NCBI GenBank assembly: GCA_964349945.1
Contig: CAYGIH010000001.1
Coordinates: forward strand, 361,218 to 372,580
Direction: 5' to 3'
Length of the DNA stretch: 11,363 nucleotides
Origin: an uncultured Candidatus Saccharibacteria bacterium
GTDB taxonomy: Bacteria > Patescibacteriota > Minisyncoccia > Phycocordibacterales > Zambryskibacteraceae
The position numbers and the translations under genes were made by a program. The notes under the pieces are model-generated. The model did no database searches. It was not told the origin of the DNA and saw nothing but the letters and a program-made list of their open reading frames with translations. Shown in pieces: positions 9,543 through 11,363 of the stretch (position 1 is its first letter; the number at the start of each line of letters is the position of its first letter).

Positions 9543-11363
9543 CTATCTGAATAATAAACCAAAGAATGAATTAAAGAAATCAATTATTATGTTAACAATA
9601 CCCGATGAAGACACCGAGGCAAGGTTGATGGTGTTTGAATTCGTATTATAACCAAGGTCTCCACCCCCACCACCTTGACCCCCGCCACCCTGAGGAGTAC
9701 CTGAACCACTACCTTCATCTGGTGGAGTGGTTGTCGCTGTCCCTCCAGTTTGTGCGGGTGCGCTTCCTTGAGTTTCTCCTCCAGCTGAAGATGCCCCACT
9801 TGAACCACCTCCACCACCTCCTCCGCTAGTATTTTTCCTAGCTACAGAAGAGACAACTACAATTGGTTGTGCACTATAAGTGAAGAATGAATTCGAACCA
9901 TTGTTGGTAAGTCTGAAACAATTATTTACATCTGTATCTATTGCTGAAGTTGATTTGATAGAGTATTCCAACTCAGTAAATTGATTTGTCCCGAGTGTCA
10001 TAGCTTGCGTCTGATTATTTTGAGTTTGAATCCTGCCCGGCACAAATGCTCCTGCTGGGTCAGTAAGACCAGCATTATTTGTTGTTGGTTGTCCGTTCGA
10101 CACATATGTAGATGTATCAATTATCCATTTTTCTGTTGTTTGAGATGCGTAAGAAGGAACTGATATCCATGAAGAGCAAGAACTTGATGCGTGTTCAAGT
10201 CTGTAGAGATAATTTGATGCAGGACCACCAGCATTAGACAACAGAACTCTTAAACGAAGCCTGTCTCCAGGGAAAATATTATTTACAAGAGAAGTATCTT
10301 CTGCAGAAAGGAATGTGGCGTTGGTTTCTGAGCCATTATCACTTCTCCATCTATAGTGGAGTTGAGCAATATCTACCGGAGTAGAACATGAAGTGGTTGT
10401 AAATGATGCGGAGATTGCCCCATATCCTGTCCCGGTTGGGTTTGTGGCATAGGCGCGTGAGTAATATGTAGTACCACAGGTGAGAGTTGCTAGGTTAGCA
10501 GTAAATGCACCCACTTCCCATGTGCCGTTATCTGTGGTAGTAGCTGTATCTCCACCAGAAAGTGATGAGTTCGTTCCCCAAGCAAATCCACGCACTGTGG
10601 CATTAGAACCACCAGTAGCAGTAATGTTTCCATTAAGTGTAGCTGAGGTTTCAAGAACCGAAGACGCTGATTGAGTGGTAACTGTTGGGGCACATGGTAA
10701 GGTTGAGAAAAATTGAATGGAACCCAACCCTGTTCCTCCAGGGTTTGTGGCGTATGCACGGAAGTAATAAGTCGTATTACATGAAAGTCCAGAAAGATCT
10801 CTTGCAGAAGATGAAGTGAATGCTCCTGTACCTGTGAACCCTCCTCCTGTAGTAGTAGCTGCAGTAGCTAGTGCAGAATCAGTACCCCATGCGAAGCCGT
10901 GTTGGGTTGCGTTCGCTCCACCAGTAGTAACAATACTACCGTTTAGGGTAGCTGTAGTTTTTGTAATCGAATCTACTATATCATTAGTTAATACAGTTGG
11001 TTTAGCTATAACTATAAAGCTTCTAGTTGAACTCCATGCCCCATAAGCATTGCTACCTGATGGATCAATAGCTCGTGTTCTCCAATAATATGTTCCTAGT
11101 GCCAAGGCATCTCCTGCTTGGACTGTATACTCTTTCGCTTGTCCTGAAGTGAATGGATGCCCAGCAGTAAAACCAGCATCGGAAGCAATAGAATATTTGC
11201 TCAATGGCACAATTGTTTGTTTATAGATGTCTCCTTCATCAACACTAGCGTAAACATCACCATTAGATGAATTGACGGAGATGCCATACCACCACTTTGC
11301 TCCTCCAGTAGCATTTAAAGCATTCCATGTTCCTGTACCAGCGGTTTGTTTGTAAATGTCGCC
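9543..11363 (-). CDS. Large secreted/surface protein, 5'-truncated at the window edge: beta-propeller-like repeats – FN3-like – 2 tandem FN3-like repeats – unknown beta domain – Gly/Ser-rich linker – C-terminal hydrophobic tail
   Basis: The reading frame stays open from 11210 to 11363 (no stop; the 'M' at 11210 in the ORF track is a GTG). Repeated 'GDIYKQT…NGDVYASV' units near the edge. 'GTYYWRTRAIDPSGSNAYGAWS'. Two ~95-aa repeats 'ATLNG.I…GFAWGT…TTYYFRAYATNPGGTGLG'. 'GGGGGGGSSGASSAGGETQGS…GGGGQGGGGG' linker (9660..9824). Ends 'GIVNIIIDFFNSFFGLLFR'. Stop at 9545..9543. Confidence 0.6.
   Translation of the reverse strand, partial: GDIYKQTAGTGTWNALNATGGAKWWYGISVNSSNGDVYASVDEGDIYKQTIVPLSKYSIASDAGFTAGHPFTSGQAKEYTVQAGDALALGTYYWRTRAIDPSGSNAYGAWSSTRSFIVIAKPTVLTNDIVDSITKTTATLNGSIVTTGGANATQHGFAWGTDSALATAATTTGGGFTGTGAFTSSSARDLSGLSCNTTYYFRAYATNPGGTGLGSIQFFSTLPCAPTVTTQSASSVLETSATLNGNITATGGSNATVRGFAWGTNSSLSGGDTATTTDNGTWEVGAFTANLATLTCGTTYYSRAYATNPTGTGYGAISASFTTTSCSTPVDIAQLHYRWRSDNGSETNATFLSAEDTSLVNNIFPGDRLRLRVLLSNAGGPASNYLYRLEHASSSCSSWISVPSYASQTTEKWIIDTSTYVSNGQPTTNNAGLTDPAGAFVPGRIQTQNNQTQAMTLGTNQFTELEYSIKSTSAIDTDVNNCFRLTNNGSNSFFTYSAQPIVVVSSVARKNTSGGGGGGGSSGASSAGGETQGSAPAQTGGTATTTPPDEGSGSGTPQGGGGQGGGGGDLGYNTNSNTINLASVSSSGIVNIIIDFFNSFFGLLFR

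Follow-up and report, generated by a model that had tools for sequence, protein, structure and literature searches.

Proteins of the LPXTG class, the substrates of sortases, carry a wall-spanning region rich in Pro, Gly, Ser and Thr, followed by the LPXTG motif, a hydrophobic segment and a basic tail. The GlyGly-CTERM/rhombosortase, PGF-CTERM/archaeosortase and PEP-CTERM/exosortase systems use a short glycine-adjacent junction motif, a hydrophobic stretch and a basic end, on domains that tolerate alternative C-termini, and fibrillar adhesins combine long stalks of Ig/FN3-like repeats with a distal binding domain. Escherichia coli PBP5 is exported by a cleavable signal peptide, and its last 18 residues keep it attached to the inner membrane at the outer face (PMC2909392). 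Here we analyse an 11,363-nt stretch of contig CAYGIH010000001.1 (positions 361,218 to 372,580; hereafter the window), probably from an ultra-small bacterium of the Candidate Phyla Radiation (CPR)/Patescibacteria, which encodes the last third of a putative surface protein of 1,846 residues that ends in a Gly-rich segment and a short conserved tail. This giant protein resembles LPXTG substrates in being large and multi-repeat, with a putative signal peptide, a low-complexity spacer near the C-terminus and a hydrophobic end with a basic residue, but it has no LPXTG motif, no core of transmembrane (TM) grade, no NCBIfam anchor match and no sortase gene seen nearby. The features of the CTERM systems named above recur in it, yet the TM helix that defines those systems is absent family-wide, no model matches, no cognate enzyme was seen and the tail occurs on one domain family so far. 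It differs from described fibrillar adhesins in that its head and its 'HYRWR…CFRLTN' domain (hereafter the HYRWR domain) match no curated family and its attachment is non-standard. By analogy, it appears to work most like a PBP5-type anchor joined to a Gram-positive-style wall-spanning spacer.

The open reading frame (ORF) in question lies on the minus strand and runs without an in-frame stop from the window edge at 11363 to an Arg codon at 9546–9548 and a TAG stop at 9543–9545, giving 606 codons of a 5′-truncated gene, whose translation agrees with the letters quoted in the first-pass annotation. Contig L001 is 99.96% identical to window positions 8988–11363 over 2,376 nt, and we therefore treat its complete ORF, the 1,846-aa ENA protein P0121, found as a member of the 90%-identity cluster of the NCBI gene model P0001, as the full-length version of the window fragment. 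The recovered length bears out the first-pass annotation, which was made from the window alone and had called the protein giant. At the N-terminus of P0121, a basic stretch precedes a hydrophobic core that ends …NIGQAEA/A (…LRLGLALGILMFFTFGFNIGQAEA/A), together a Sec signal-peptide-like segment read from the sequence by eye. There follow, in order, a head of about 230 aa that has no Pfam match, seven FN3-like repeats, a 'YYWRTRAID' module split by five propeller repeats, two further FN3-like repeats, the HYRWR domain, a Gly-rich segment of 61 aa and, last, a tail of 38 aa. The last three of these form the base module on which the analysis centres:

9843–10385, minus strand: 'HYRWR…CFRLTN' β-sandwich of about 175 aa (residues 327–507), belonging to a large uncurated family
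9660–9842, minus strand: Gly-rich segment (residues 508–568, 25 Gly in 61), ending in GGGGG; based on the family alignment and an AlphaFold predicted local distance difference test (pLDDT) of 40–60
9546–9659, minus strand: C-terminal tail (residues 569–606) with the junction D-L-G-Y, 'NLASV', 'SSG' and the predicted amphipathic helix IVNIIIDFFNSFFGLLFR (about 9549–9608); based on a hidden Markov model (HMM), AlphaFold and the hydrophobic moment

The HYRWR domain stands last and is followed by a Gly-rich segment in 78 of the 155 family proteins examined. These module proteins take two forms: 43 stop right after the Gly run (…GGGGGDSG-stop, …GGGGGLE-stop), with endings DSG (13), LE (8), DSE (5), SE (4) and others, and 35 continue through D-[STVIL]-G-[FYL] into a tail of 20–48 aa, mostly 26–45 aa. 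A read-through and frameshift test of the DNA downstream of the short-form stops found no cryptic tail in any frame. At least two tail sequence types occur across the family, one following the pattern DxG[YFL]-x5-7-(N)LA[SAQ][VLI]-x3-8-(S/A)G-amphipathic helix-[RK], to which the window tail belongs, and the other DSGFLFPF[KR]FF…F.I[ST]D..F…K. Against an HMM built from 12 other tails of the first type, all from proteins of less than 55% identity, the window tail scores 25.8 bits, a score reached by none of 2,000 composition-preserving shuffles (best 14.3, even with the DLGY junction fixed). Its closest relative, the tail of P0166 at locus L003, which ends …NIIIAITRLLFR, has in common with it 'NLAxV', 'SG', 'NIII' and the terminal LLFR. 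Because its HMM score exceeds that of every shuffle, the tail reads as a conserved coding element and not a translated spacer, despite the low GC content of its DNA (25–33%, against about 42–48% in most of the gene). A search of the tail-coding DNA for a terminator or promoter gave a single weak hairpin, not above chance.

AlphaFold predicts the last 20 residues (model residues 261–280) to be helical with a pLDDT of 70–85, after a disordered Gly segment. The window tail has a helical hydrophobic moment of 0.55 at a mean hydrophobicity of 0.55 (p = 0.002 versus shuffles), and of 18 further tails of the helical (non-FLFPF) type that were tested, 15 have a significant helical moment; tails of the FLFPF type have no significant helical moment and show a β-type alternation of hydrophobic and polar residues. 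The tail had first been described as a hydrophobic stretch with a terminal Arg; the sequence is as described, but the stretch is amphipathic and not uniformly hydrophobic. A terminal Arg or Lys is found on 20 of 34 distinct tails. The best 19-residue stretch of the window tail, with an Asp and two Asn inside it, scores 1.63 on the Kyte-Doolittle scale and sums to +5.3 kcal/mol on the Hessa scale, against 2.66 and 2.86, and −3.1 and −3.5, for the C-terminal TM anchors of two neighbouring gene products. None of 35 tails in the family is of TM grade, and most carry 3–9 charged residues. The homologous tails are less hydrophobic than the window tail and carry 2–11 charges, except that of P0180, whose segment, as extracted, takes in some of an atypical acidic linker. 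Those of P0126, P0201 and P0229 are acidic, coiled-coil-like helices.

The Gly-rich segment was initially taken for a linker of about 55 residues. It is indeed present and predicted to be disordered, but the plain word linker does not do it justice: the window copy contains two copies of E-x-x-G-S-G-x(4)-G-G-G, the family consensus is two copies of E-x-x-G-S-G-(P)-x4-G-G-G followed by a terminal G5 run, and the length clusters at 52–60 aa in most family members. Because the length is conserved and the pattern is repeated ahead of G5, the segment is not random low complexity, which argues for a specific role, perhaps in modification, wall interaction or metal binding, over that of a mere spacer.

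The HYRWR domain, set down in the first-pass annotation as an unassigned β-rich domain, fits that description and represents a real, large family. AlphaFold, run with a 40-sequence alignment, models it confidently as a β-sandwich (pLDDT >95), and no Pfam or NCBIfam model matches it. A word-indexed search with the domain gave just 8 matches, and an exhaustive profile search was required to find the family: among 1.84 billion sequences, a profile of 8 HYRWR sequences matched 3,547 cluster representatives, mostly from CPR, at a limit of E ≤ 1e-3, of which 362 also pass E ≤ 1e-30, with up to 21 copies of the domain per protein. A scan of species-representative GTDB genomes gave 80 loci (best identity 52%), most of them in Paceibacterota, Parcubacteria, Falkowbacteria and other Patescibacteria bins and a minority in Desulfobacterales, Acidobacteriota, Omnitrophota and Binatia. 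In other family proteins several alternative C-termini follow the domain, as would be expected if the position behind it were a site at which attachment devices are swapped. One different conserved end, '…(L/M)MRHGKWF-x(5-8)-QPFTF-stop', occurs on the HYRWR-domain proteins P0236, P0248, P0181, P0213, P0235 and P0199 and at loci L021, L044 and L046; P0236 additionally bears an M23 peptidoglycan endopeptidase domain. Two more recurrent C-terminal domains of about 130 aa, ending '…NKRYFRYK..LCS..C…V.W.P-stop' and '…ITMP…SY..Y…I.A.AP-stop', also follow the HYRWR domain. Both the β-sandwich and the module of Gly-rich segment plus tail are uncurated in Pfam-A and NCBIfam.

We compared the C-terminus with known anchors and sorting signals. 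A regular-expression search over the 1,846 aa of P0121 found no LPxTG motif, the sole loose match lying at residue 1027; no NCBIfam LPXTG-anchor model matches the giant protein, and a lone terminal Arg stands where the LPXTG layout has a cluster of basic residues after a TM-grade segment. SLH, dockerin and other anchor models of Pfam and NCBIfam match neither the fragment nor P0121, Dockerin_1 being positive as a check in the neighbouring gene product. These searches of the full-length protein uphold the earlier statement that LPXTG-like motifs and dockerins are absent. Sorting-signal models gave no match even at E ≤ 10, either in NCBIfam (searched with four tails and with the window linker plus tail) or in Pfam, and the tail does not show the tripartite layout of motif, TM helix and Arg/Lys of the PEP-, PGF- and GlyGly-CTERM types. 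With these defining features tested and absent, the giant protein falls outside the LPXTG, PEP-/PGF-/GlyGly-CTERM and dockerin classes. A scan of 1.16 Mb of related loci, with 3,805 ORFs, placed the tail pattern behind the HYRWR domain only, apart from one spurious non-coding match. A tail-only profile returned nothing at E ≤ 10 from 5.8e9 proteins, an uninformative result since a profile of about 40 positions is too short to reach significance at such size. The window, L001, L082 and L083 show no gene that resembles those of sortases, rhomboids or exosortases. Two further candidates were rejected: a C-terminal signal of the type I secretion/RTX kind, as tandem GGxGxDxUx nonapeptides are absent and a putative N-terminal signal peptide is present, and a cytosolic tail-anchored protein, on account of the same signal peptide. 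The first-pass annotation had proposed a membrane anchor or a non-canonical sorting signal. The full-length protein has no standard sortase or SLH anchor elsewhere, and the tail is common to homologues of less than 55% identity, so an anchoring or sorting role remains plausible. Its two specific forms are weakened: a TM anchor by the lack of TM-grade hydrophobicity, in this tail as in all 35, and a dedicated sorting signal by the missing model match, the 43 of 78 proteins without a tail, the restriction to one domain and the lack of a sortase-like gene nearby.

We tentatively favour the reading that the tail is a PBP5-like in-plane amphipathic membrane anchor on a flexible stalk. The giant protein would be a Sec-exported, fibrillar-adhesin-like surface protein in which a variable outer part (head, FN3-like repeats, NHL-like propeller) rests on a conserved base at the C-terminus, made up of the HYRWR β-sandwich, the patterned Gly-rich stalk of about 55–60 residues and the tail of about 38 residues. 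The tail would lie uncleaved, as an amphipathic α-helix, flat in the outer leaflet of the cytoplasmic membrane, with its terminal Arg at the lipid head groups; the stalk would span a thin wall or envelope; and the short forms (…GGGGGDSG, …GGGGGLE) would be released or otherwise-held versions of the module. What the analysis shows is the domain anatomy, the operon context and, for the tail, conservation, predicted helicity, amphipathicity, hydrophobicity below TM grade and optional occurrence; Sec export, membrane binding, topology and lack of cleavage are what we infer for this arrangement.

In favour of this reading we count the signal-peptide-like N-terminus, the recurrence of the module, the conserved motif order of the tail, its helical, amphipathic and not TM-grade character, the frequent basic last residue, the alternative C-termini behind the HYRWR domain and the comparison with PBP5. 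As modelled, the tail has the structural hallmark of that type, in which the last 18–20 or so residues of an exported protein form an amphipathic helix. Like E. coli PBP5 and PBP6 (DacA/DacC), which are exported, the giant protein is predicted to leave the cytoplasm by way of an N-terminal signal peptide, lacks a TM segment and closes with a predicted amphipathic helix of this length. Hydrophobic moment and mean hydrophobicity are 0.55 and 0.55 for the window tail against 0.50 and 0.37 for the PBP5 anchor, and the tail segment 'NNFFDFIKNLFSKIF' of P0226 resembles 'NFFGKIIDYIKLMF', which we take to be the corresponding letters of PBP5. The two differ in that the passengers are non-homologous, that the window helix is set off by a Gly-rich stalk of about 60 aa and a conserved DxG…NLAxV…SG lead-in, that half of the family has no tail and that membrane binding is a prediction here.

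Several observations weigh against an in-plane anchor. The tail is not essential to the module, being missing from 43 of 78 module proteins, and one mechanism may not fit all tails, as those beginning DSGFLFPFKFF… have no significant helical moment. Helices of this kind may also make protein–protein contacts, and the acidic coiled-coil-like tails of P0126, P0201 and P0229 look unsuited to membranes. The Kyte-Doolittle value of 1.63 for the window tail is borderline, so that marginal TM insertion is conceivable, and AlphaFold places the helix with moderate confidence only.

The alternatives are best weighed together with the genes that follow on the same strand:

9543–9545, minus strand: TAG stop of the giant gene, then 1 nt, then the ATG (9539–9541) of the dockerin-protein gene; sequence read directly
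8228–9541, minus strand: next gene, for a secreted protein of 437 aa in which a poly-Gly run and an Ig-like domain accompany a type I dockerin at the C-terminus; Pfam Dockerin_1 (E 6.8e-7) and Big_6
5755–8240, minus strand: two cohesin-like surface proteins (260 and 579 aa), both carrying a C-terminal TM anchor; based on recurrent synteny and TM-grade hydrophobicity

The layout of stop and start is compatible with translational coupling. The cohesin identity of the two membrane proteins is only a lead: Pfam cohesin matches neither, and a sequence search of the PDB gave a single match, a cohesin, at E 0.19. Using tblastn with the three downstream proteins against 82 loci, we found the order HYRWR-domain gene, dockerin gene, 260-like gene, 579-like gene in at least seven loci, namely the window, L003 (10435–15051), L016, L018, L048, L059 and L068. 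At least part of the dockerin/cohesin-like set lies within 10 kb of the HYRWR-domain gene in 13 of 80 loci, in different Patescibacteria bins; by our own estimate, chance would give roughly 2% for a cassette present about once per genome of about 1 Mb. At L003, directly upstream of the same cassette, stands a giant protein of 2,291 aa that has the base module of the window protein and a nearly identical tail, on an N-terminal part that is entirely different. The pair looks as though outer parts can be exchanged on a base that is conserved. The dockerin protein begins with a segment of no matching family, 'FKV(S/E)(D/S)PV…PGGY…S.S(F/Y).L…S…FGG(F/A)…GFLYFPF', behind which come an FN3-like segment and 13–17 consecutive Gly; this N-terminal motif is kept between the window and L003 (10435–11904), with 53% identity overall. 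A DUF192 gene lies downstream of the window cluster (4736–5206) and another directly downstream of the tail-bearing P0222 in L083 (9426–9770), a coincidence or a linked gene. The bona fide type I dockerin, the two cohesin-like membrane proteins and the conserved order recall cellulosome-type assemblies; on the other side, the giant protein itself has neither dockerin nor cohesin, and the neighbours' cohesin identity comes from a weak match. As the four-gene cassette contains no carbohydrate-active enzymes, it is not a classical cellulosome. The first-pass annotation had placed the giant protein in a cohesin system, as cargo or filament or tethered independently of the cohesins; the recurrent gene order supports the link, and nothing ties the tail itself to cohesin binding.

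The alternative that survives best, though we regard it as unlikely, is that the tail is a docking or oligomerization helix, which would bind an operon component (the cohesin-like or dockerin protein) or bundle copies of the giant protein. The recurrence of the cassette speaks for it, as do the L003 protein, which is unrelated in its N-terminal part but has a near-identical tail in the same position, and the acidic, coiled-coil-like tails of P0126, P0201 and P0229. Against this, the HYRWR proteins of cassette loci L016, L018, L048, L059 and L068 end in other domains, without this tail, and the tail-bearing loci L010, L011, L017, L019 and L083 have no cassette in their available flanks. With cassette loci mostly without the tail and tail loci mostly without the cassette, the two do not co-vary.

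Rather less probable is that the Gly-rich end and tail constitute a new cleavable C-terminal sorting signal, which a CPR enzyme would cut at …GGGGG-D-[ST]-G to attach or release the protein, in analogy to the LPXTG/sortase, GlyGly-CTERM/rhombosortase and PGF-CTERM/archaeosortase systems; the intact protein would then read …GGGGGDLGYNTNSNTINLASV… and the processed C-terminus would end …DLG. The start of the tail always coincides with the end of the short forms (…GGGGGDSG-stop versus …GGGGGDSG-FLF…), the D-x-G-aromatic junction is conserved, and 20 of 34 distinct tails finish in a basic residue. The HYRWR domain with its several alternative C-termini also behaves like a 'choice-of-anchor' domain, a concept known from NCBIfam naming. 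However, the TM-grade hydrophobic core that defines known tripartite signals is found in none of 35 tails, no sorting-signal HMM matches at E ≤ 10, the tail is confined to one domain among the 3,805 ORFs, the window, L001, L082 and L083 show no candidate enzyme gene, and the short forms would be 'mature' already. The same low probability attaches to the broader proposal that the Gly-rich segment and tail form a sorting or attachment signal specific to CPR/Patescibacteria behind a 'choice-of-anchor' HYRWR domain, either cleaved by an enzyme or serving as a non-dockerin docking peptide for the cohesin-like proteins.

We doubt still more that the tail is a marginal stop-transfer TM anchor of type I topology with its C-terminal Arg inside the cell. 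The 18-residue segment IVNIIIDFFNSFFGLLF followed by Arg is predicted to be helical, and its Kyte-Doolittle value of 1.63 is near the classical threshold, but the Hessa sum of +5.3 kcal/mol, the Asp and two Asn inside the segment and a lone basic residue that adjoins the free carboxylate are ill suited to such a role. Real anchors encoded 1–3 kb away score −3.1 and −3.5 on the Hessa scale and 2.66 and 2.86 on that of Kyte and Doolittle, and the homologous tails, P0180 excepted, are still less hydrophobic, with their 2–11 charges. That the tail is functionless, the chance read-through of an AT-rich spacer after loss of a stop behind …GGGGG, is the least credible explanation of all and largely refuted by the apparent conservation of the tail: the low GC content, the commonness of short forms ending right after the Gly run and an ORF that stops 1 nt before the next ATG might suggest it, but the profile match from proteins of less than 55% identity lies far above all 2,000 shuffles, 'NLAxV', 'SG', 'NIII' and 'LLFR' recur in the L003 tail, and short forms have no cryptic tail downstream.

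Under the in-plane anchor reading, the base would carry an outer part of which the window holds the following C-terminal portion:

11214–11363, minus strand: last 1.2 or so blades of a five-blade NHL-like β-propeller (fragment residues 1–50), the remainder lying beyond the window edge; based on repeats, Pfam, PDB, AlphaFold and Foldseek
11004–11213, minus strand: C-terminal half of the 'YYWRTRAID' module (residues 51–120); based on segment order in P0121
10692–11003, minus strand: FN3-like repeat, eighth of nine (residues 121–224); based on motif, AlphaFold, Foldseek and a weak match to contactin-5 FN3
10386–10691, minus strand: FN3-like repeat, ninth of nine (residues 225–326); same basis as the eighth

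The propeller repeat unit is 43 aa long ('TGTWNALNATG..K.W.G.SVNSSNGDVYA....GDIYKQT'), and 'GDIYKQT' occurs five times in P0121; the first-pass annotation was right to see a propeller-like repeat, its spacing of about 45 aa being slightly too long. The repeats match Pfam DUF7395 at 33 bits (cut-off 27), fall just under threshold for NHL (19.5 bits, cut-off 20) and for SSL_N (strictosidine-synthase-N), and in the PDB find the Pizza propellers, designed proteins of six blades, at E 1.4e-4. AlphaFold models each repeat as four strands at a pLDDT of about 80–85, and Foldseek matches include Ycf48, WRAP-T and further propellers, so that a β-propeller-like identity is supported at the level of predicted structure. 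The N-terminal half of the 'YYWRTRAID' module sits upstream of the propeller in P0121, and because the two halves flank it, the propeller can be read as an insertion. An FN3-like nature had been suggested for this module and could not be confirmed: the rejoined halves have no significant match in Pfam or PDB, and AlphaFold models the module at a pLDDT below 50, from an alignment without homologues for that part. Apart from the DUF7395 and NHL-like matches of the propeller, Pfam and NCBIfam gave nothing significant for the fragment, P0121, the isolated HYRWR domain, the tails, the head or these rejoined halves. The two tandem 'ATLNG…YYxRAYATN' repeats in the window fared better. AlphaFold models them at a pLDDT mostly of 77–97, and Foldseek matches them to FN3 tandems of NEO1 (FN5-6, TM-score 0.64), PTPδ (Fn1-2, 0.60) and LAR (0.58), which agrees with their earlier assignment; on these models they are FN3-like at the fold level, a seven-strand β-sandwich. 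P0121 contains nine 'Y[YL].RAYA' motifs. Pfam fn3 (PF00041) matches neither the fragment nor P0121 (E ≤ 0.1/0.01), and the homologue P0006 exceeds the fn3 threshold with 63.8 bits over summed repeats (cut-off 25).

The NCBI gene model P0001 has 555 aa and starts at an internal GTG (11210) of the same sequence, and this public annotation is probably truncated. The frame stays open past that start as far as the edge of the window, and on the near-identical ENA contig it is part of a single ORF of 1,846 aa. The window edge falls in a 129-nt tandem repeat with copies 81–85% identical (L001 5689–6095), a type of repeat prone to assembly collapse. Upstream of the giant gene, L001 carries a partial gene (2–2359) for 785 aa with a Thr/Ser-rich end and no Pfam match, which overlaps the ATG of the giant gene by 4 nt. 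Because of this overlap, co-transcription of at least five genes for large surface proteins is probable.

CPR/Patescibacteria are tiny and mostly episymbiotic, and their large surface proteins are prime candidates for host attachment; to our knowledge, how these bacteria display very large surface proteins is poorly understood. The analysis defines an uncurated β-sandwich family with 3,547 representatives, often C-terminal in giant proteins, a recurrent C-terminal base module of patterned Gly-rich segment and optional conserved tail, and a conserved operon that joins genes for such proteins with those for a dockerin protein and a pair of cohesin-like membrane proteins. An in-plane anchor, if that is what the tail is, would be a further example of a known trick; a sorting signal or docking peptide would suggest that a major lineage of uncultured bacteria has envelope-assembly machinery of a new kind. 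Either way, the module offers an annotation handle for thousands of 'hypothetical' proteins.

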